From a bacterium (GTDB taxonomy: Bacteria; Armatimonadota; Zipacnadia; Zipacnadales; Zipacnadaceae), in contig JAUWYY010000008.1 of assembly GCA_030615605.1 (NCBI GenBank), positions 26,323 through 90,322 of the forward strand: DNA of 64,000 bases, in the 5' to 3' direction. The notes beneath the pieces were generated by a model that was not told where the DNA came from, made no database searches, and saw only the letters and a list, made by a program, of their open reading frames with translations. The first letter of the stretch is position 1. The number at the start of each line of letters is the position of its first letter. Below, in pieces: positions 551-8,894 of this stretch. A program made the translations under genes and the position numbers.

Positions 551-1444
551 ATGAGCGCGAGGTATTCCTGGCTAGTTGTTATCATTTTGGTCGGTGCAAG
601 TCTGTCAATTGCTTCGGCGCAAGATATGAGCGGTGCCATCGAGCAGGTCAAGGAAAGCGTGCTGACCATCAAGAGCGGCGAGCGGGTTGGAGCCGGCTTC
701 ATTGTTAGCCCTGACGGGCACGGCTTGACCAGTGCTCATCTGGTTGGCGACAATTCCCAGGTCACCGCAGTGCTGGCCAATGATGAAGAGCTGGACGCGA
801 AGGTGACGAAAACAGATGCGGCGCTCGACCTGGCACTCATCAAGCTGGATCTGCAAAATCTGCCGGCGGTTCGCTTTGCTCCCAGCAGCGAGCTGAAGCA
901 GGGCGCACGGGTAGCGGCGTTGGGCGCGCCGCTGGGCCTGGAAGGCTCGGTTAGCGAGGGAATTGTCAGCGCGTTGGAGCGGGAGGTGAAGGGCAAGCGC
1001 TACCTGCAAATCGACGCTGCCCTCAATGAGGGTAACTCCGGCGGCCCGGTCATTGATGAGCATGGACGCGTGGTGGGTGTGGCCACGGCGGTGGTTAAGG
1101 AGGCGCAGAATGTGGGCTTTGCAGTACCCAGCGACGCGGCCATTGCCTTTTTGCAGGAGGCTGGGGTGCTGCTTAGTCTGCCGTTGGGCCAGCAAGGGGC
1201 CGCTGCCGTTAAGAGACCCACAGGTGGGCCGGCCAGGCTGCCAGCCCCGCCTGTGGTGAAGCAAGCTGAGCCTGCGTGGTTGCTGCTGGTGGGTATTCCC
1301 TTTGCGGTGGCCCTGGTAGTTTCGCTGCTGGTTTCGCTGCTGGTGACTCGCCGGATACGCCACCGCCTCGCCGAGCCGGAGATAAGTCTGGCTCCAGCCA
1401 GCGAAGACGAAGACCTGTCTGATGTTGATATCACATTGCACTGA
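551..1444 (+). CDS. Trypsin-like (S1C/HtrA-type, no PDZ) serine protease with signal peptide, C-terminal TM helix and acidic cytoplasmic tail
   Basis: GAGFIV, TSAHLV (His), DLALIK (Asp), GNSGGP (Ser); N-terminal hydrophobic signal; TM WLLLVGIPFAVALVVSLLVSLLV followed by RRIRHR. Confidence 0.9.
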   Translation: MSARYSWLVVIILVGASLSIASAQDMSGAIEQVKESVLTIKSGERVGAGFIVSPDGHGLTSAHLVGDNSQVTAVLANDEELDAKVTKTDAALDLALIKLDLQNLPAVRFAPSSELKQGARVAALGAPLGLEGSVSEGIVSALEREVKGKRYLQIDAALNEGNSGGPVIDEHGRVVGVATAVVKEAQNVGFAVPSDAAIAFLQEAGVLLSLPLGQQGAAAVKRPTGGPARLPAPPVVKQAEPAWLLLVGIPFAVALVVSLLVSLLVTRRIRHRLAEPEISLAPASEDEDLSDVDITLH

Positions 1445-1491
1445 CAGTGGTTAGTGGACAGTGAAGAGCGACGGCAGGGCGCAGGTGGGTA

Positions 1492-1525
1492 TTGCCAGCA
1501 ATGACATTCTTGTCGCATAATTATG
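1492..1525 (+). promoter_or_regulatory. Candidate sigma70 promoter for the Ubl gene, with overlapping palindrome
   Basis: TTGCCA (1492-1497), 18 nt, CATAAT (1516-1521); palindrome CATAATTATG 1516-1525; GGGAGG RBS before ATG 1557. Confidence 0.4.
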
Positions 1526-1556
1526 ATAACGCGATCCAACCAGGGAGGTTCGTACA

Positions 1557-1826
1557 ATGGGCAAAGTGACCGTGACTGTACTGGATGCCACCGGCTCCAA
1601 GGAGCAGAAGGCCAGCCTGCCGGATGACGCACCGGTGCGGCGAATAATCGGCAAGCTTATCGAGATGATGAAGCTGCCGTCCACCGGCCCCGACGGCCAG
1701 CCGATGAGCTACAAGTTCCATCATAAGGCTTCGGGGAAACAGCTCACTGACGACCAGACGCTGGCCGACGCCGGCGTCAAAGACGACGATGTCCTGCGCC
1801 TCCAACCGGAGATAACAGCGGGGTAG
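1557..1826 (+). CDS. Ubiquitin-like beta-grasp protein (YukD/EsaB-like) with C-terminal Gly
   Basis: 89 aa; ubiquitin-fold signature GKQLTDDQTLADAGVKDDDVLRL (cf. ubiquitin [23 protein letters not shown]); ends ...QPEITAG*; strong RBS. Confidence 0.9.
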   Translation: MGKVTVTVLDATGSKEQKASLPDDAPVRRIIGKLIEMMKLPSTGPDGQPMSYKFHHKASGKQLTDDQTLADAGVKDDDVLRLQPEITAG

Positions 1827-1872
1827 CTTCGTCTCGCAAGTCTGCATATTCGGCACAGGGAAGTGACGGACA

Positions 1873-2964
1873 ATGGGCACATATCGCATTGGTGCCGACG
1901 GGCGCCTGACGGAATACCAACCCCAAGTCTTGAGCGATGAACATTGTGAGGAAGAGTTCAAAGACTGGCTGGAGCAGAATCCTCAGATGCTCATTGACGA
2001 CGAGGATGTCCTGTGGATTGGCCGAGAGGTCACCACTGAACTGGGCAAATCGGTGGACCTGCTGGGGTTGGATGAGCGAGGTCAGATTCTCGCTGTCGAA
2101 GTGAAGGCCGGGACCTCACCCCGCACTGTGATCGCTCAGGCCCTGGAATATGGTGTCTGGGCGGATGGGCTGGCTTATGAAGATCTGTGGCGTATAGCAA
2201 AGGATTACTGGAGGAGAAAAAGCGGAGATTTGGACTGGATCCCAGCAGGCAGCGAGCATGATATACCCGATCTCTCCGAGGGATTCGAGGTCTACTTCGA
2301 TGAGAAGCGCGAGATTCCGGCCCGACAAACCGTCATCTATGTGGTCGCTCAACGCATGGCCGAAGACATCCAGAGAGTTGCCCACTGGCTGCGCAAGCAC
2401 GGCATCGATGTTCGGTGCCTAGAGTTTACGTATCACGAGGGAGAGAAGAAAACCGATCACCTGCTGACCACCACGTTGACTGTGGGACAAGTGAGTCTTC
2501 CGGAATCAGGGCGCGGTCCAATTGACCGAGAAACGTTTCTGCAGCGTTTGGAGGAGGATGCCGACCGAGGGGCCGTCGAGAGGCTGATTGATGCCCTGGA
2601 GCGAATTGTGGACGAACATCGAGAATTGTGTACGGCAGGGTATCGCACCTCCAACTGGGTCTTCGAGGTGCATCCACCGGGCGAAAAGGCAGCCGGTGTG
2701 TTGTACATCGGCGAAGAGCAGGTGAGCCCACGCTTTGACTACATGATAAGAAGAGAAGTACCTCGAAAAGTCTGGGAGGGCTACCGCGACCGCCTCTACG
2801 ACTACGATGATGCGGCACCATGGGAACCCTCCCCACAAGGCGAAGAGGAACCAGAACTCCATGGGTTTCGCCTGCCTTGCCGTGAGGACCTATTGACCGC
2901 CGAGCACAAGAACATTGTGTCCGCGGTGGAGTGGCTGGTGGAGCAGTTGGCTGCTCTGGAATGA
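1873..2964 (+). CDS. NucS/DUF91-like PD-(D/E)XK endonuclease domain protein
   Basis: E..F..WL..NP, IGRE, VDLLGLD...AVEVK...IAQALEY match the NucS-like restriction-endonuclease fold; C-terminal region not recognised. Confidence 0.75.
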   Translation: MGTYRIGADGRLTEYQPQVLSDEHCEEEFKDWLEQNPQMLIDDEDVLWIGREVTTELGKSVDLLGLDERGQILAVEVKAGTSPRTVIAQALEYGVWADGLAYEDLWRIAKDYWRRKSGDLDWIPAGSEHDIPDLSEGFEVYFDEKREIPARQTVIYVVAQRMAEDIQRVAHWLRKHGIDVRCLEFTYHEGEKKTDHLLTTTLTVGQVSLPESGRGPIDRETFLQRLEEDADRGAVERLIDALERIVDEHRELCTAGYRTSNWVFEVHPPGEKAAGVLYIGEEQVSPRFDYMIRREVPRKVWEGYRDRLYDYDDAAPWEPSPQGEEEPELHGFRLPCREDLLTAEHKNIVSAVEWLVEQLAALE

Positions 2965-2974
2965 TTGATTGCCG

Positions 2975-4162
2975 ATGACTGAGGACCAGATTCTCGACAT
3001 TGATCTTGAAGAGGGGCGGTATCATCGGCTGGAGCTGATTCCCTGGTGGGATCAACAGCGGTTGTTTGACGCGCGGGTGATGGTGGTGGGCGCCGGGGCG
3101 CTGGGCAACGAAATCCTCAAGCAACTGGCCCTGCTGGGGGTGGGTAATATCTATGTGGTGGATATGGATACTATCGAGGAGTCTAACCTGACCCGGGCGG
3201 TGCTGTTCCGCGAGAAAGACGAGGGCCAGCCCAAGGCGGAGGTAGCTGCCCGCGCGGTGACCGAGCTGAATCCGGACATCAAGGTGCAGAGCTTTGTGGG
3301 GAATGTCGTCTATGACCTGGGCGAAGGCATCTTTCGGGATATGGATATCGTGCTGGGCTCGCTGGATAACCGTGAAGCGCGCGTGGCGATAAATCAGAGC
3401 TGCTGGAAGCTTAACAAGCCGTTTGTTGACGGAGCCATTGAGGTAATCCAGGGCGTGGCGCGCATCTTCTGTGGGCCGGAGGGGCCGTGTTATGAGTGCA
3501 CGATGAACGAGAAGGACTACGAGCTGCTCAGCCAGCGCCGCTCCTGCGCGATGCTGTCTCGTGACGATATCGTGCGGGGGCACATACCAACCACTCCGAC
3601 CACCGCTTCGGTGATTGCTGGAGTTCAAACTCAGGAGGCCATCAAGTGGCTACATCGCGACCGGGAAATGCCGCTGCTGCTGGGTAAAGGGTTTGTCTAC
3701 AACGGGTTTAGCAATGAGTCGTATATCATCGAATATCAGCGCCGCGCGGATTGCCCCGCTCATATCACGCTGCCGCCGCTCCAGGACCTGGACAAGTCGG
3801 TTGATACGGCCACAGTTGGCGAGATGCTGGAGCTGGTCAGATCGGAGGTCGGCCCCGAGGCGGTGCTGGAGTTTGAGCGGGAACTGTGCATCGGGCTGTA
3901 CTGTCCGAACTGTGACGAAAGCGAGCCGGTATTCCGCTCACTGGGCAAGCTGCGCGAGGCGGAGGGGCGCTGTCCGCACTGTCACGAACTGCGCGACCCG
4001 GAACTGACCCACGCTATCTATGGCGATGAGGATTATCTGGATAGAACGCTGGCGGATATGGGCCTGCCGCCGTACGATATTGTGATTGGCCGGGACGGGC
4101 TTGAGGTAGCAGCCTTCGTATTGGCTGCCGACCGGGAGACTGCCGTGGGCTGTCTGGCTTGA
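2975..4162 (+). CDS. E1-like ubiquitin-activating enzyme (ThiF/UBA family) with C-terminal Zn ribbon
   Basis: VVGAGALGNE, DMDTIEESNLTR, LDNREAR, CYEC...CPAH Zn site, candidate catalytic Cys in RRSCA, C-terminal CPNC/CPHC. Confidence 0.92.
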   Translation: MTEDQILDIDLEEGRYHRLELIPWWDQQRLFDARVMVVGAGALGNEILKQLALLGVGNIYVVDMDTIEESNLTRAVLFREKDEGQPKAEVAARAVTELNPDIKVQSFVGNVVYDLGEGIFRDMDIVLGSLDNREARVAINQSCWKLNKPFVDGAIEVIQGVARIFCGPEGPCYECTMNEKDYELLSQRRSCAMLSRDDIVRGHIPTTPTTASVIAGVQTQEAIKWLHRDREMPLLLGKGFVYNGFSNESYIIEYQRRADCPAHITLPPLQDLDKSVDTATVGEMLELVRSEVGPEAVLEFERELCIGLYCPNCDESEPVFRSLGKLREAEGRCPHCHELRDPELTHAIYGDEDYLDRTLADMGLPPYDIVIGRDGLEVAAFVLAADRETAVGCLA

Positions 4163-4183
4163 TGATTCTGTTCTTAGGGACGA

Positions 4184-5218
4184 TTGACTATGAATGATGA
4201 GAAGCGTGCTAAAACTGACGACAATGATCAGGTTGGCATCTCTCTGCAGCCGCCGCGAGAGTCGTCTGGCTACGGGGGGAGAGATGTAGTGGTCATGGTG
4301 GCCGAATCGGTGCTGGAGGAGGTGCGCCGCCACGGCCAGCAGGATACCTCCCGCGAACAGGGCGGCATCCTGGTGGGCACGGTAGCCTCCAGTCAGGACA
4401 AGGTTTACGTGAATGTGGAGGCAGTGATAGCTGCGCCCCAGACCCGAGCAAAGCGCACCAGCATCACCTTCACTCACGATAGCTGGGCACATATCAATCA
4501 GGTCAAAGATAGCGACTATCCCGACCAGGACATTGTGGGCTGGTATCACACCCACCCGGGTTTCGGGATATTTCTGTCTGACTATGATACTTTCATCCAT
4601 CGCAACTTCTTCCCGGCGGCCTGGCAGGTGGCGTTGGTAATTGATCCGCTTTCCGACGAGTCCGGTTTCTTTGTTTGGAAAGGCAACGAAATTATCCCGC
4701 GCAAGCAATACAATGTATTCAGTCCGCTGGTTGCGCCCGCCAAGCCGGTGGCCGCAGAGCCGGCCCCGCTGCCGGCCGACCTCGTGGCTCCACCGATGCC
4801 CCGGCGGGCCAGCATTGTTACGGTGGTGGTCCTGCTGGTGCTGGCCTTGCAGGTAGTTACGCTTCTGGCGCTTTTCCGGAAGCCGGCCGCGATTGTGGAG
4901 TCATCGGGTCAGCCTGCCCAGTTGGCAGCGCAGGTCGGCAGACTGGAACAGCAGATTACCGAAACGCAGGCACGGGTCGAGGAATTGGACAAGGCCCGGC
5001 CAGCGGCCAGTAGCGCTGAGGCTGGTCCTGAGTATGAGTGGTATGAAGTCAGATACGGCGACAGTCTGTGGAAGATTGCCAGGGAGCACTATGGCGACGG
5101 CACAAAGTACACAATTATTGCCGCTGAGAACGGAATCGCACTTCCCAGGGCAATAATCAATCCCGGGCAGAGACTACGGTTGCCGAATGTGGCAAAGGAG
5201 AGCCGTGGCGCCGAATGA
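4184..5218 (+). CDS. JAB/MPN+ (JAMM) isopeptidase fused to TM helix, coiled coil and LysM domain
   Basis: EQGGIL...GWYHTHPGFGIFLSDYD (E...HxHx7Sx2D); TM IVTVVVLLVLALQVVTLLALF; LysM YEVRYGDSLWKIAREHYG...INPGQRLRLP. Start could be ATG 4190. Confidence 0.9.
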   Translation: MTMNDEKRAKTDDNDQVGISLQPPRESSGYGGRDVVVMVAESVLEEVRRHGQQDTSREQGGILVGTVASSQDKVYVNVEAVIAAPQTRAKRTSITFTHDSWAHINQVKDSDYPDQDIVGWYHTHPGFGIFLSDYDTFIHRNFFPAAWQVALVIDPLSDESGFFVWKGNEIIPRKQYNVFSPLVAPAKPVAAEPAPLPADLVAPPMPRRASIVTVVVLLVLALQVVTLLALFRKPAAIVESSGQPAQLAAQVGRLEQQITETQARVEELDKARPAASSAEAGPEYEWYEVRYGDSLWKIAREHYGDGTKYTIIAAENGIALPRAIINPGQRLRLPNVAKESRGAE

Positions 5219-5945
5219 CGACAGCGCAGAACTGGAGATCGAGATTGAGCAAGCGCCTGCCACGGAGCTGGCGCAGGGGCCTGATCCCGCCGACGAGGAA
5301 GGGCGGTCCCTGCTGAAACTGGGACAGCCTGGCGGGCAGCAGCGTGTTTTCATGGCTTATGCCTGCCTGAAGCAGATGCTGGCTCATACCCAGCGGAATC
5401 TGGACGCGGAAATTGGCGGGATTCTGCTGGGACGGATCTTTCGCAGCGATAAGGGAATCGTGACAATTCTGACGGAGGCGGTGGCGGCGGTTCGCACTGA
5501 TGCCGGCCTGGGCCATGTGACCTTCTCACACGAGACCTGGGCCGACCTGTACCAGTATCTGGAGTCGCTGGCCACTGATACCGATATCGTCGGTTGGTAC
5601 CACACCCATCCCGGGTTGGGTGTGTTTTTCTCAAGACAGGACAGGTTCATCCAGGAGAATTTTTTCGGCGGGCCCGGACAGGTCGGCATCGTGGTTGATC
5701 CCGTCGCGGATAGTGTCGTGCTGTTTATGTCTCATGAGGGCGAGACGGCCGCCTGCAATGGCTTTTGGGTGACGGGTGCCGAGGAGGATGTGCCGGCTGC
5801 CCGCCAATTGATAGCCAAACTTACCTACGCAAAGCAAGAAGCGGCCCGAGGCGGCTGGCTGGAGAGTTGGGGCCAGAGGTTACAGGGGGCGTTGGGCCGC
5901 AAGCAGCCTGCCGAGCAGCCGGTGGCCGACGATGAGGAAGCCTAG
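5205..5945 (+). CDS. JAB/MPN+ (JAMM) isopeptidase
   Basis: EIGGILLG...GWYHTHPGLGVFFSRQD; GTG 5205 preceded by AAGGAG. Confidence 0.9.
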   Translation: MAPNDDSAELEIEIEQAPATELAQGPDPADEEGRSLLKLGQPGGQQRVFMAYACLKQMLAHTQRNLDAEIGGILLGRIFRSDKGIVTILTEAVAAVRTDAGLGHVTFSHETWADLYQYLESLATDTDIVGWYHTHPGLGVFFSRQDRFIQENFFGGPGQVGIVVDPVADSVVLFMSHEGETAACNGFWVTGAEEDVPAARQLIAKLTYAKQEAARGGWLESWGQRLQGALGRKQPAEQPVADDEEA

Positions 5946-5952
5946 ATAGACT

Positions 5953-6480
5953 ATGAATGCAAGACTGCGCCGACTGTATGCTGACTATCAACAGGTCCAC
6001 AGTGACTTTGCGGGGCATCCCTATGTTGATGTCGAGCCGATTCGGGGTAATCCCCCCGAGGCCTACCGGATCAGCTATCATATAAAGGGCCTGGAGCTGG
6101 ATCAGGCCAGCAATCGCCCCCGGGTCAGAACCGAGCATATGGCCACTATTTACCTGCATCGCGACTACCCGCGCGAGAAGCCCAAGTGCGTGCTGGAGAC
6201 GCCAATCTTCCATCCGAATTTCGGCTCCTACATCTGCATTGACGACTACTGGGCGGCGGGAGAGACACTGGCCGATGTCATCATCCAGATCGGGCAGATG
6301 ATTCAGTATCAGAGCTACAATCCCAAAAGTCCGCTGAATGCGGTGGCCGCGCGCTGGTGCCAGCAGAATGAGCATCTCCTTCCCATCGGCGATGCTGATC
6401 TGTACCAGCCGGAGCTGGATATTGATTTGCTTGGTGATGGCAAGCTGGGTGAAGAGGAGATCGAAATAGAGTTGTTATAG
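5953..6480 (+). CDS. E2-like ubiquitin-conjugating enzyme (UBC fold)
   Basis: N-terminal RLRRLYADY helix, DYPREKP, TPIFHPNFGSYICID (HPN motif plus catalytic Cys), NPKSPLNAVAA. Confidence 0.92.
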   Translation: MNARLRRLYADYQQVHSDFAGHPYVDVEPIRGNPPEAYRISYHIKGLELDQASNRPRVRTEHMATIYLHRDYPREKPKCVLETPIFHPNFGSYICIDDYWAAGETLADVIIQIGQMIQYQSYNPKSPLNAVAARWCQQNEHLLPIGDADLYQPELDIDLLGDGKLGEEEIEIELL

Positions 6481-6523
6481 TGCCGGCGCTGAGTCGTGCC
6501 CAGCGGAATATCGCAGGACACAG

Positions 6524-7270
6524 ATGGAGTTGTCCAGAGTGCGTTGCCCTTACTGTCATGAGAATATCACAGTCCAGGGCCGGTTTTGTCCGAAGTGTGG
6601 CGACCAGATATTCGGGCGGCCGGTTGCGCGTGGTGGCACGGAGCCGTCGCAGCCGGCCTCTACGCCCAGCTCGTGGCAGGCTCCTTCTCCGCAAGCCGGC
6701 GGCGATGTTCTCGACATTGAGTTGGAGGACGCTGCTGAGGCTGTCGGTGCTTCAGATAATGCCGTCGGCCAGATGTGTCCGTTCTGCCGGTTTCCCATTA
6801 AAGAAGGCGAAGAGGTAATCACCTGCCCGGACTGCCAGACCACACTGCACGCCGACTGCTGGCGAGAGAATGACGGATGCACCACCTACGGCTGCTCCAG
6901 CTCGCCCCAGGCAGCAGCCGTTCGGCGTACTACGGGGCAGGCTGCGCGCGGTGGCCGCAGTTGGCCTGGGTTCGGTGGCACAACGCCGGGGACGATACCG
7001 ATGCCGCTGGGCGCTCGCCAGTTGCTCGAAGCCGAATTCGAGGGCCAGGGCACCAATGTGCTGCTGTTCGCCATCCTGCAGATTCTCTTCTGCGGGGGAT
7101 TGCTATCAATTATTGCCCTGGCCTGGAGTATATCGCTGCTTTCGCAAATGAAGCGGTTCCAGCTCCGCACCTCAAGGGGGCGGAACAAGGCGATTGCGGC
7201 TGCAATTATCAGTGGGATAGTGACTCTGGCATGGCTTATAGGGATTGCCTGGCCGCTTATCGGCAGGTAG
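6524..7270 (+). CDS. Zn ribbon + prokaryotic RING finger + C-terminal TM helices (candidate membrane-anchored E3 ligase)
   Basis: N-terminal CPYC..CPKC; RING-like CPFC-x12-CPDC-x4-HxxC-x6-CxxxxC; C-terminal hydrophobic helices resembling DUF4190. Confidence 0.8.
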   Translation: MELSRVRCPYCHENITVQGRFCPKCGDQIFGRPVARGGTEPSQPASTPSSWQAPSPQAGGDVLDIELEDAAEAVGASDNAVGQMCPFCRFPIKEGEEVITCPDCQTTLHADCWRENDGCTTYGCSSSPQAAAVRRTTGQAARGGRSWPGFGGTTPGTIPMPLGARQLLEAEFEGQGTNVLLFAILQILFCGGLLSIIALAWSISLLSQMKRFQLRTSRGRNKAIAAAIISGIVTLAWLIGIAWPLIGR

Positions 7271-7301
7271 TGGCGGTAGTCTTCTTGGGGGCCCACATCG
7301 T

Positions 7302-7928
7302 ATGGGTTACGAAGACCCTGAAATCGAAATCAGCTCAACCCAGTCGCCGGAGCCGCTTAAGCGCCGGCGGCCGGGTCCGCCGCTTGCTGTAGTCGGTGAG
7401 GTAGGCGCGCCGGCCGGGAAAGGGGCGATCTTTCTGCATCTGGAGGCCATCGGGGCGATAGTTGATTCCTTGCCCGGCCAAGAGCAAATGGAGGTAGGCG
7501 GGCTGCTGGTCGGCAGGGAGTGTGAGGATGAGGCGGGCGTCTATCTGCTGGTAGCTGGCGCGATTCCGGCCCGGCAGGCAAGAGGCACCTCGGTGTCGGT
7601 GACTTTTACTCACCAGACCTGGAATCAGTTGTCTGCTGAAAAAGTAAGCCGCTACCCGGATCAAGCGATCGTCGGCTGGTATCATACTCATCCGGGGCTG
7701 GGTGTGTTCCTTTCCGAGCGCGACCTGTTCATCCACCGCAATTTCTTTGCCGACAGCACTCACATAGCTGTGGTGATTGACCCGTCCAAGTTTGCCTGGG
7801 GCATATTCTACTGGCAGGACTCAGACCTGGTAGCTGCGCCGGGTTGTTACATATATGGGGAGCCTGCCGAGAAACATGAGCGACTGTCTGAACTACTGCC
7901 CCGCTACCAGCCCAGCCATATGCAATAG
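7302..7928 (+). CDS. JAB/MPN+ (JAMM) isopeptidase
   Basis: EVGGLLVG...GWYHTHPGLGVFLSERD; ATG 7302. Confidence 0.9.
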   Translation: MGYEDPEIEISSTQSPEPLKRRRPGPPLAVVGEVGAPAGKGAIFLHLEAIGAIVDSLPGQEQMEVGGLLVGRECEDEAGVYLLVAGAIPARQARGTSVSVTFTHQTWNQLSAEKVSRYPDQAIVGWYHTHPGLGVFLSERDLFIHRNFFADSTHIAVVIDPSKFAWGIFYWQDSDLVAAPGCYIYGEPAEKHERLSELLPRYQPSHMQ

Positions 7929-8102: not shown

Positions 8103-8894
8103 ATGACAATTACGAGGTATCTACCGATAATTGTTGCCTTGCTGATGAGTGGCGCAGTATGGGCGCAGGAAGGGGCGGCGCCACCTGCCAGCGAAGAATT
8201 GCCCGCTGAGGAAACACAACCGGTAGCCAAAGACAGGGTGACAGTGCAGACTATCACATCGTACCTGGACCGAATGAACTACGTCTACAAACTGGACAAG
8301 TCGGTAAAGGTGCCCGAGATTGAGCTGCTTATGCGCGGAGACAATGCCAATTACCAACTGCGCATATTCATTGACGACCCCCGCAAGGTCGTCTACATGT
8401 GCATAAATCGGCTGATGACCATTCCTGATTCACATCCCCGCAAGAGTGCTGTGCTCCAGAGGTTGATGGAACTTAACTGGGAGCTTTTAATTGGCAAGTA
8501 TGAATGGGACAAAAGCGACGGGGAGGCGCGGCTCTCCTACACATTCAGTACGGAAAACGGCCTGGGCTATGAGGCTTTCGTGGCGTGCTTCCAGCTCCTG
8601 GTGCTGACCGCCGACCGAGACTATCCCAAGCTTATGAGACTGATATGGGCCCCAGAGGAAAAGCCAGCCGAGCCGCTTCCTGTGGGTACGCCTGAAGAGG
8701 GTGCCAAAGAGAAGGTTACTGCGCCCAAAGAAGAGACTCCTGCCAAGGAAGAGGCTCTCTCTAAGCCAGAAGCTCCGACCAAGGAGGAAGCTCCCCCCAA
8801 GGGAGAAGCTCCCTCCAAGGAAGAAACTGTAGCCGAGCCAGAAGCTCCAGCCCAGGAAGAAGCCCCCTCCGGACAAGAGACCGAGGCGGAATAG
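8103..8894 (+). CDS. Exported YbjN-like (T3S-chaperone fold) protein with acidic/Pro repeat tail
   Basis: Signal peptide (AVWA/Q); core LMELNWELLIGKYEWDKSDGEARL resembles the YbjN family; C-terminal 6-aa KEEAP-like repeats. Confidence 0.6.
   Translation: MTITRYLPIIVALLMSGAVWAQEGAAPPASEELPAEETQPVAKDRVTVQTITSYLDRMNYVYKLDKSVKVPEIELLMRGDNANYQLRIFIDDPRKVVYMCINRLMTIPDSHPRKSAVLQRLMELNWELLIGKYEWDKSDGEARLSYTFSTENGLGYEAFVACFQLLVLTADRDYPKLMRLIWAPEEKPAEPLPVGTPEEGAKEKVTAPKEETPAKEEALSKPEAPTKEEAPPKGEAPSKEETVAEPEAPAQEEAPSGQETEAE

Follow-up and report, generated by a model that had tools for sequence, protein, structure and literature searches.

Short linear motifs that read ubiquitin-like modifiers, such as the SUMO-interacting motif (SIM), the LC3-interacting region (LIR), the UFM1-interacting motif (UFIM) and the ubiquitin-interacting motif (UIM), are regarded as a eukaryotic layer. 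Eukaryotic SIMs, with the consensus pattern V/I-x-V/I-V/I, are short hydrophobic β-strands with acidic flanks that bind a basic β2/α1 groove. SIM, LIR and UFIM peptides contact β2 and α1 of eukaryotic modifiers, and LIR motifs bind Atg8 as an added β-strand, like SIMs on SUMO and the LIR/UFIM of UBA5 on UFM1. Here we describe a short peptide motif, hydrophobic in its core and acidic in its flanks, that recurs on seven proteins of a bacterial operon for ubiquitin-like conjugation. The operon lies at positions 551-7928 of a 64,000-nucleotide stretch of contig JAUWYY010000008.1 (the window); related contigs are labelled Armatimonadota, Candidatus Zipacnadia or WS1. It encodes a ubiquitin-like protein (Ubl), an E1, an E2, a RING protein, three JAB proteins, an HtrA-like protease and a NucS-like protein.

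By likely mechanism, the motif appears closest to SIMs and to the LIR/UFIM of UBA5. It resembles SIMs in its hydrophobic core, acidic flanks, location in disordered regions, tandem copies and putative β-strand addition by β2/α1. Whereas SIMs are found on E3s and effectors, the operon motif is also on the E1, the E2 and all three JAB proteases. Moreover, its core alternates strictly (Φ-x-I-x-L, where Φ is hydrophobic), unlike the SIM pattern given above, and the modifier is ubiquitin/YukD-like rather than SUMO. Passages of a study of SUMO describe a SIM groove separate from the surface bound by catalytic domains, so that both can bind at once, and E1, E2 and proteases (SENPs) that use catalytic-domain surfaces instead of SIMs (PMC12687455). 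For UBA5, the E1 of UFM1, passages of another study describe a LIR/UFIM in an unstructured tail that captures UFM1 in trans for activation, and a second tail segment that recruits the E2 rather than the Ubl (PMC8304084). UBA5 is thus alike in being an E1 with a conserved short motif in a tail, and there, in the same passages, an enzyme-borne linear motif drives a Ubl cascade (PMC8304084). In contrast to the C-terminal motif of UBA5, found on the E1 only, the operon E1 has an N-terminal copy and shares its motif with six other operon proteins and with unlinked proteins. The UBA5 motif presumably also resembles E2 tails such as DDLGIELL.

By its parts, the operon belongs with the eukaryote-like prokaryotic operons that combine ubiquitin, E1, E2, RING and JAB proteins. 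Its E2 has a UBC fold, an HPN motif and a catalytic Cys (Pfam UQ_con; confident core in the AlphaFold2 (AF2) model), and a ThiF-type E1, a RING-type E3 and JAB proteases are encoded together. Caldiarchaeum-type operons are alike in their Ubl with a C-terminal Gly, ThiF-type E1, HPN/Cys E2, RING and JAB/Rpn11-like proteases, and passages on the archaeal cascade report that it is biochemically active (PMC5654768). In the bacterial operon, these are joined by a membrane-anchored HtrA-like protease, a protein with a JAB domain, a transmembrane segment (TM) and LysM, and a membrane-anchored RING. The available passages of the Caldiarchaeum study make no mention of a shared tail motif, and the terms "non-covalent" and "C-terminal tail" are absent from its text (PMC5654768). 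A full-text literature search, which did not reach supplements, found no description of such a motif for prokaryotic ubiquitination operons.

The bacterial Bil and Bub systems also encode a Ubl, E1, E2 and JAB protein together (PMC11601603). Their components, as listed in passages of that study, include no RING (PMC11601603), whereas the operon has one. We considered and set aside assignment to Bil, Bub or CBASS Cap2-Cap3: PADLOC gave no match for the E2, RING or Ubl, and the E1 matched Cap2-type proteins and BilD over the adenylation domain only. Nor does the operon encode a DUF6527 protein or any fusion of E1 with E2 or of JAB with E1.

Motif sites and enrichment

Across the window sites and their orthologs, the consensus is [DE][DE]-Φ-x-I-x-[LIF], with x mostly D or E, and a short hydrophobic core with acidic flanks is present at the sites of all seven proteins. 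The motif copies, all in frame, are as follows.

1403..1441, +: protease, extreme C-terminus, EDEDLSDVDITLH followed by the stop
2978..3013, +: E1, N-terminal, TEDQILDIDLEE, directly before the conserved EDRY domain start
4217..4246, +: JAB-LysM protein, N-terminal, DDNDQVGISL, degenerate
5217..5252, +: JAB2, N-terminal, DDSAELEIEIEQ
6409..6432, +: E2, first tail motif, PELDIDLL
6451..6477, +: E2, second tail motif, extreme C-terminus, EEEIEIELL followed by the stop
6701..6730, +: RING protein, linker, GDVLDIELED
7311..7334, +: JAB3, N-terminal, EDPEIEIS

An initial annotation of the window had placed the motif on these seven proteins and had seen none on the NucS-like one. Every site was recovered in frame where it had been reported, and the NucS-like open reading frame (ORF) indeed carries no copy. 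That annotation had passed over the motif on unlinked proteins and the two copies each in the protease and E2 tails, the second protease copy being a weaker upstream PEISL. A strict pattern misses three variant copies: T stands at the fourth position in the protease copy, P at the first in that of JAB3, and G and S occur in that of the JAB-LysM protein.

The nine ORFs of positions 551-7928 total 2,392 aa and all run in one direction.

551..1444, +: HtrA/Trypsin_2-type serine protease (Pfam Trypsin_2, E 3.4e-33; NCBIfam Do/HtrA below cut-off)
1557..1826, +: Ubl, 89 aa, ending PEITAG, without the motif (Pfam YukD, 54 bits)
1873..2964, +: NucS-like/PDC-S11-like gene between Ubl and E1, without the motif (PADLOC PDC-S11, E 1.2e-30; weak NucS_C match)
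2969..4162, +: E1, ThiF-family adenylyltransferase (Pfam ThiF, E 1.5e-56)
4184..5218, +: JAB-LysM protein with a JAB deubiquitinase-like domain, a TM predicted from sequence and a peptidoglycan-binding LysM (Pfam JAB, Prok-JAB, LysM)
5187..5945, +: JAB2, second JAB protein (Pfam Prok-JAB and JAB)
5953..6480, +: E2 with UBC fold, HPN motif, catalytic Cys95 and a disordered C-terminal tail (Pfam UQ_con)
6524..7270, +: RING protein with a Zn-ribbon, a linker, a Prok-RING_1 E3-like domain and a C-terminal membrane segment (Pfam Prok-RING_1, E 1.5e-11)
7245..7928, +: JAB3, third JAB protein (Pfam JAB), its translation probably starting at M20 rather than at the ORF start

The protease is predicted to consist of an N-terminal signal or TM, a periplasmic protease domain, a C-terminal TM and a 32-aa cytoplasmic tail with a basic start. 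The RING protein has additional weak Pfam matches to DZR and DUF4190 and ends in hydrophobic segments. Judged from sequence, the protease, the JAB-LysM protein and the RING protein appear to be membrane-anchored with their motif parts in the cytoplasm, and the other four enzymes appear to be soluble.

The motif is enriched over background, contrary to what chance occurrence would predict. In a crude ORF set for the whole genome (first-start calls, among which the E1 is mis-called), the pattern [LIV][DE]I[DE][LI] has 38 matches in 854,854 aa, or 4.4e-5 per aa, and the nine operon ORFs contain 5 exact matches against ~0.11 expected (Poisson P ~1e-7, for a pattern picked post hoc). A back-translated DNA pattern, TNGANATHGANNT, has 7 matches in the 64-kb window against 0.58 +/- 0.71 expected from 100 dinucleotide-preserving shuffles of the window, none of which reached 7. 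Five of the seven are in frame in the operon, in the E1, JAB2, the E2 (twice) and the RING protein; according to their translations, the other two are antisense to riboflavin-synthase-like and aminotransferase-like genes.

At the DNA level, the eight motif sites have in common only the AT of the Ile codon. They average 41% identity per column and differ freely at third codon positions. A direct-repeat search found nothing beyond what coding for the same peptide implies, and this result together with the divergence of the sites rules out a nucleotide-level repeat or junction signal. Because the residues are conserved across phyla while the linkers vary, and the DNA is shared only at the Ile-codon AT, the motif appears to be selected at the protein level.

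Conservation and unlinked carriers

The motif is conserved in orthologous operons. A sample of 401 genomes of the phylum contained 65 with the E2, and 40 loci were fetched and their ORFs classified by BLASTP. Most of these loci, and operons in other phyla as well, have the gene order [E2-like]-protease-Ubl-E1-JAB/LysM-(JAB or RINGs)-E2-RING-JAB. All 18 protease C-termini (the window and 17 orthologs) end in D-[VIL]-[DE]-I-[TDEQ]-L-x-stop after linkers that differ in sequence and length, and the terminal motif is present in four further loci (L187, L196, L197, L198). In an alignment of 28 E2s, which excludes L032 (a partial E2), E2 paralogs and matches below 54% identity, I172 of the terminal motif is as invariant (28/28) as the catalytic-site residues H87, P88, N89 and C95, and the tail after P153 otherwise varies in sequence and length. 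The E2 terminal consensus is DD-Φ-x-I-E-L-x, and most of these E2s also keep the proximal copy, LYQPE-Φ-D-I-D-L.

The remaining sites behave similarly. In the main ortholog group, Φ-x-[IV]-x-[LF] with acidic flanks occurs at the E1 N-terminus, just before EDRY or farther upstream (DDLDIELIG-type), and JAB N-termini of orthologs carry DDLEIEI, DDIQIQLG, DDFQIELG and similar sequences. The motif is clear in 6 of 9 JAB2 orthologs, and a variant without a strict match is present in the other 3 (DDLSDVEIE, DDLGIET, SSEVSIQME). JAB3 orthologs have EEPEIEIS, DDLEVEL, DDIQIQLG and DDIDIRLG, and RING linkers have VLEIELE, VLDITLD and VIDIDLE. The weak JAB-LysM site (QVGISLQP) is validated by same-genus orthologs, in which it reads clearly as HDLDISLQP and QDVDISLQP. 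The constant part of the motif is therefore Φ, I and the final L/I/F; x is mostly D or E, with G, H, Q, T, K and R tolerated. The smallest motif-bearing operons consist of Ubl-E1-RING-JAB-E2 (L053-L056, L064).

In a survey of other phyla (loci L187-L226; L147-L186 come largely from genomes covered before), the terminal E2 and protease motifs are kept in loci labelled Acidobacteriota, Clostridia (Tindallia, Anoxynatronum, Syntrophomonas), Chitinophagales, Methylocystaceae and Ignavibacteria. The motif was not found in operons of this survey from Planctomycetota, Verrucomicrobiota, Ozemobacteraceae and others; there, the protease lacks a tail, and the E2 either stops short or continues into a fused Cys-rich domain.

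The motif lies outside folded domains. In an AF2 model of the E2, the UBC core is confident and residues 154-175 have predicted local distance difference test scores (pLDDT) below 50, which places both E2 motifs in a disordered tail, undocked on the E2 core, and rules out packing of these motifs in cis. For the other proteins, a location in intrinsically disordered regions would be in line with this model; linkers around the protease motifs, like those of the E2, vary in length and sequence among orthologs. Since no cytoplasmic domain of the protease accompanies its tail, the protease motif must act in trans.

A genome-wide scan found two further carriers, P1 and P2, on other contigs, both with the motif in acidic N-terminal tails.

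C12:127993-128583 (L071:1501-2091), +: P1, 196 aa, two motif copies, EELEIELHG and GELLEITQQD
C21:75164-75859 (L091:1501-2196), +: P2, 231 aa, acidic N-tail with EEIDIEIE, one TM and a coiled-coil-like region

In P1, the motifs are followed by a small domain and a Cys-rich, TerY-C-like end (Pfam E 0.0053, below cut-off; Atlas score 0.91). Its orthologs likewise have two copies, as in DVLDIDLEDL...AVLEVNLDE and DIIEIELDDL...ELLEISLDDL. P1 has a match in 23 of the 401 genomes of the phylum, of which 21 belong to f1, f4, f5 and f7, families in which the E2 is also present; the two remaining matches, both weak, are in other families of the phylum, so that within the order only operon-bearing families have P1. 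It was not found in families f3 (0/13 genomes) or f6 (0/2). For P2, the N-tail is, by its predicted topology, the sole cytoplasmic part, with the domains beyond the membrane, so that its motif must likewise act in trans. In f1, f2, f4 and f7, P2 orthologs have the motif immediately N-terminal to the TM (EEIDIELE, DDLDIDLG, EELDIEIER), sometimes in weaker forms such as VDDISLDD. In f3, where none of 13 genomes has the E2, none of the 8 recovered P2 orthologs has the motif, and an EEYSYTD-like sequence stands at the same position. The P2 counts leave out five f3, one f6 and one f4 loci without a BLAST match. These patterns suggest that the distribution of the motif on P1 and P2 is linked to the presence of the operon, although the family contrasts span few independent events.

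The natural reading of these results is that the motif is a genuine, enriched and conserved short linear docking peptide with a shared docking role in trans, and in this general form the reading is well supported. The initial annotation had proposed a SIM-like docking code that assembles all the enzymes on the Ubl or on a shared scaffold. What stands of that proposal is an enriched and conserved linear motif in disordered, cytoplasmic sites at termini or in linkers of all seven enzymes; a role of the Ubl as its receptor is consistent with the data.

The candidate receptor and alternative readings

Several properties of the Ubl make it a candidate receptor. Among the orthologous operons compared, every conserved operon protein but the Ubl carries the motif, and the Ubl is also the most conserved protein (76% mean column identity over 22 sequences across the phylum). 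Its AF2 model is a β-grasp fold (pLDDT 91.4; β1 3-9, β2 16-22, α1 27-37, β5 79-85). T87, A88 and G89 are invariant, and some orthologs extend 1-6 residues past the final TAG, a short pro-peptide; the protein is thus predicted to be a β-grasp Ubl that ends in Gly and whose C-terminal extensions would be processed. Foldseek gave ubiquitin and its variants, NEDD8, SUMO and Caldiarchaeum ubiquitin (27% identity) as top matches, about equally alike. Assignment of the modifier to the SUMO family was considered and rejected, since Pfam Rad60-SLD (21.4 bits) fell below its cut-off of 23.8, YukD scored 54 bits and Foldseek ranked several modifiers alike. The term "SIM-like" is therefore an analogy; the Ubl is ubiquitin/YukD-like.

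The initial annotation had also pointed to a basic region of the Ubl as the match to the acidic motif. Among 22 aligned Ubls, K15 is invariant, R29 occurs in 90% or more and all have K or R at position 33, whereas K18, R28 and K39 vary, so that only part of this region is conserved. We further compared 52 distinct Ubl sequences, 41 from operons scored as motif-bearing and 11 from motif-free operons; manual scoring overrode the script for four of them (L055 and L195, with variant motifs only; L213 and L221, with non-terminal matches only). The motif-bearing group has K/R33 (α1) in 41/41, E/S16 in 41/41 and A19 followed by S/T20 (β2) in 36/41, with E or Q at position 20 in 0/41. The motif-free group has V/L/I33, E/Q20 and R/K37, and R/K16 in all but one. 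The positions that differ by clade (16, 19/20, 33, 37) fall in β2 or α1 of the AF2 model. The E1 is informative in a similar way: an N-terminal Φ-x-Φ-x strand precedes EDR[YF] in both clades, and x is acidic in the motif-bearing clade and mostly K, N, R, Q or S in the motif-free one. Complex prediction for the Ubl with E2 tail residues 141-175, a single pairing whose controls were left unfolded, gave ipSAE values of 0.28 and 0.29, below a mark of 0.32, and weighs neither for nor against binding.

A model built on these observations runs as follows. On binding, the motif would become a single β-strand, lined by Φ, I and L on one side and by the acidic x residues on the opposite side, and this strand would add to the exposed β2 edge of the Ubl beside helix α1. 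Each enzyme (the E1, the E2, the RING E3 and the three JAB proteases) could in this way keep free, thioester-bound or conjugated Ubl close, and the same might apply to the HtrA-like protease at the membrane and to unlinked clients, P1 and P2 among them. Tails with two copies, on the protease, the E2 and P1, may gain avidity or bridge two Ubls. Binding in trans, the β-strand mode and the Ubl as receptor are what we infer from the evidence above. We consider SIM-like binding of the motif to the operon Ubl plausible, with a probability a little short of even.

A number of observations weigh against the Ubl as receptor. The residue contrast between the two groups of Ubls is not independent of phylogeny, because it reflects essentially one deep split between operon clades, and Ubl positions outside β2/α1 (e.g. 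58, 61, 63) differ between the clades as well. That positions 20, 33 and 37 share one groove is a presumption. The motif-free label is itself imperfect, since EEKIQISWDEL stands shortly after a Ubl of the motif-free type in P0002. Among the unlinked carriers, P1 was not found in family f2 (0/4 genomes, and 0/7 in a separate search) though f2 has the operon, and none of 4 P2 orthologs in f5 has the motif, or the EEYSYTD-like sequence, though f5 genomes have the E2. Finally, in the passages cited above, the E1, E2 and proteases of SUMO do not rely on SIMs (PMC12687455) and a UBA5 tail segment binds the E2 (PMC8304084), so that an enzyme could equally be the receptor.

A stronger form of the model holds that the motif is part of a prokaryotic reader code, in which a β-strand peptide on all writers, erasers, membrane effectors and unlinked clients is read by the β2/α1 groove of the Ubl. 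The Ubl, or Ubl chains on a membrane protein, would then scaffold a trans-envelope machine that reaches the periplasmic protease and the peptidoglycan-binding LysM. The motif would have spread from the N-terminal strand of the E1, which occurs in all clades and would be the ancestral element for capture of the Ubl, and the SIM, LIR and UFIM modes of recognition seen in eukaryotes would have arisen later on the same principle. With its scaffold and ancestry parts included, we regard this proposal as doubtful.

An alternative is that the motif docks on a receptor other than the Ubl, namely the E1, E2, RING or a JAB domain or an unlinked scaffold, as a hub that gathers the machine at the membrane. 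The evidence for a conserved, disordered, trans-acting peptide fits this alternative equally well. With three enzymes membrane-anchored and four soluble, the soluble ones would need recruiting; the E2-binding segment in the UBA5 tail described in part of PMC8304084 offers a precedent; and in the minimal operons any of the five proteins could serve. However, all of the enzymes carry the ligand, so that a receptor enzyme would bind its own tail too, and AF2 docked neither E2 motif on the E2 core. Moreover, the Ubl apart, the operon has no conserved protein free of the motif, and no candidate for an unlinked scaffold was found. On balance, we consider a non-Ubl receptor unlikely, if still worth weighing.

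The motif might instead be a substrate or processing tag that directs Ubl conjugation or proteolysis, as in SIM-dependent SUMOylation or a degron, with the enzymes modifying themselves. P1 and P2 carry it without an enzymatic role in conjugation, its extreme C-terminal placement on the protease and the E2 resembles a terminal tag, and the Caldiarchaeum E2 is described in passages of PMC5654768 as auto-ubiquitylating a C-terminal lysine. Yet the window protease tail has no lysine, and placement at N-termini, C-termini and in an internal linker would be unusual for a terminal degron. A tag would also still need a receptor, so that this explanation, which we judge improbable, overlaps with binding to the Ubl or to an enzyme. 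We think it quite improbable that the motifs pair with each other in intermolecular β-sheets, perhaps bridged by divalent cations, and so cluster their carriers without a dedicated receptor. The strict Φ-acid-I-acid-Φ alternation is a self-pairing β-strand pattern, several tails have tandem copies, and Ca2+-mediated assembly is reported for other bacterial Ubls in part of PMC11601603. Against this, like-charged acidic faces would repel each other without cations, many orthologs tolerate G, H, Q, T and K at x, which suits hydrophobic contact on one side more than it suits a zipper, and the longer repeats that characterise self-assembling segments are not seen. The last alternative, that there is no peptide function and the pattern reflects chance in acidic low-complexity tails, a nucleotide signal near gene junctions or a strand packing in cis, is barely credible: most sites do lie near gene starts or ends, two site pairs are 81-82% identical over 21-22 nt (families D14, D18) and the pattern was defined after seeing the data, but conservation largely refutes it, with residues kept across phyla amid variable linkers, and so do the excess over the shuffles, the 41% identity of the sites, the mid-gene RING copy, the location of P1 and P2 on other contigs, the unpacked E2 motifs and the lack of a cytoplasmic domain for the protease and P2 tails to pack on.

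Whichever receptor it has, a conserved motif on an E1, an E2, an E3, three deubiquitinase-like proteins, a membrane protease and unlinked proteins is a handle on a widespread, uncharacterised bacterial pathway; 548 stretches in the genome collection encode an E2 relative. Clients such as P1 and P2 can be predicted from sequence by means of the motif, which also defines specific peptides and point mutants for experiments. Cultured Anoxynatronum strains carry a motif-bearing operon (loci L190, L200). If the Ubl is the receptor, reading of the modifier by such peptides would predate eukaryotes.

Distant operons and neighbouring genes

Other tail peptides occur in more distant operons. The acidic motif was not found in the remote E1-Ubl-E2-JAB operons L057-L063, which share a different motif, Φ-x-W-x-[DE], at the E2 C-terminus (SLIWQDIE-stop, TVIWKDL-stop) and the JAB N-terminus (DGIEWEDSDDGY, GDIEWQEADDAY). 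L057, the sole locus of these that was checked, has its own Ubl between the E1 and E2 (L057:8716-9039). Acidobacteriota-type E2s (L210, L215, L220) end in PW[AT]ERI[ST][IV]E-stop at the extreme C-terminus of an otherwise variable tail. Tail peptides shared between proteins thus seem to be general in these systems and to differ in sequence by clade, which suggests clade-specific docking peptides.

Orthologous operons also vary in gene content. In many, a second, divergent E2-like gene (31-37% identity) lies upstream of the protease (L036-L039, L046-L051), and L045-L050 have three to five RING paralogs between JAB and E2; the window operon has neither. In L202, L203, L207, L208, L212-L214, L222 and L226, the E2 is fused to a long C-terminal Cys-rich domain of CxxC repeats rather than ending in an acidic tail, and the operons with this fusion are labelled Planctomycetota, Ozemobacteraceae, Phycisphaerae, Sumerlaeota and Bacteroidales.

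A search for natural proteins that combine a Ubl with the motif found no motif tail in the Trypsin-Ubl fusions P0020 and P0088 and no clear motif in the Ubl-DUF4190 and Ubl-E1 fusions. Ubl homologs are fused to a Zn-ribbon plus DUF4190 membrane domain (~230 aa, e.g. in Aquisphaera; P0044, P0008 and many others) or to an E1. P0001 combines a Ubl homolog with a second Ubl and a TIR domain, and in P0002 the Ubl is fused to a multi-TM protein preceded by the EEKIQISWDEL sequence mentioned above.

The NucS-like ORF at 1873-2964 (+) belongs by its PADLOC match to the candidate defence family PDC-S11. No ortholog of it was present in the 40 fetched loci, of which 21 hold both the Ubl and the E1 that flank the gene here, and it looks like a recent or late insertion outside the conserved operon. 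Directly downstream of the operon is a YbjN-like gene (8103-8894, +), which is kept there in the same-genus loci that reach that far (L031, L032, L067). The YbjN-like protein ends in a long repetitive tail rich in Pro, Glu, Lys and Ala (..APKEETPAKEEALSKPEAPTKEEAPPKGEAPSKEE..).

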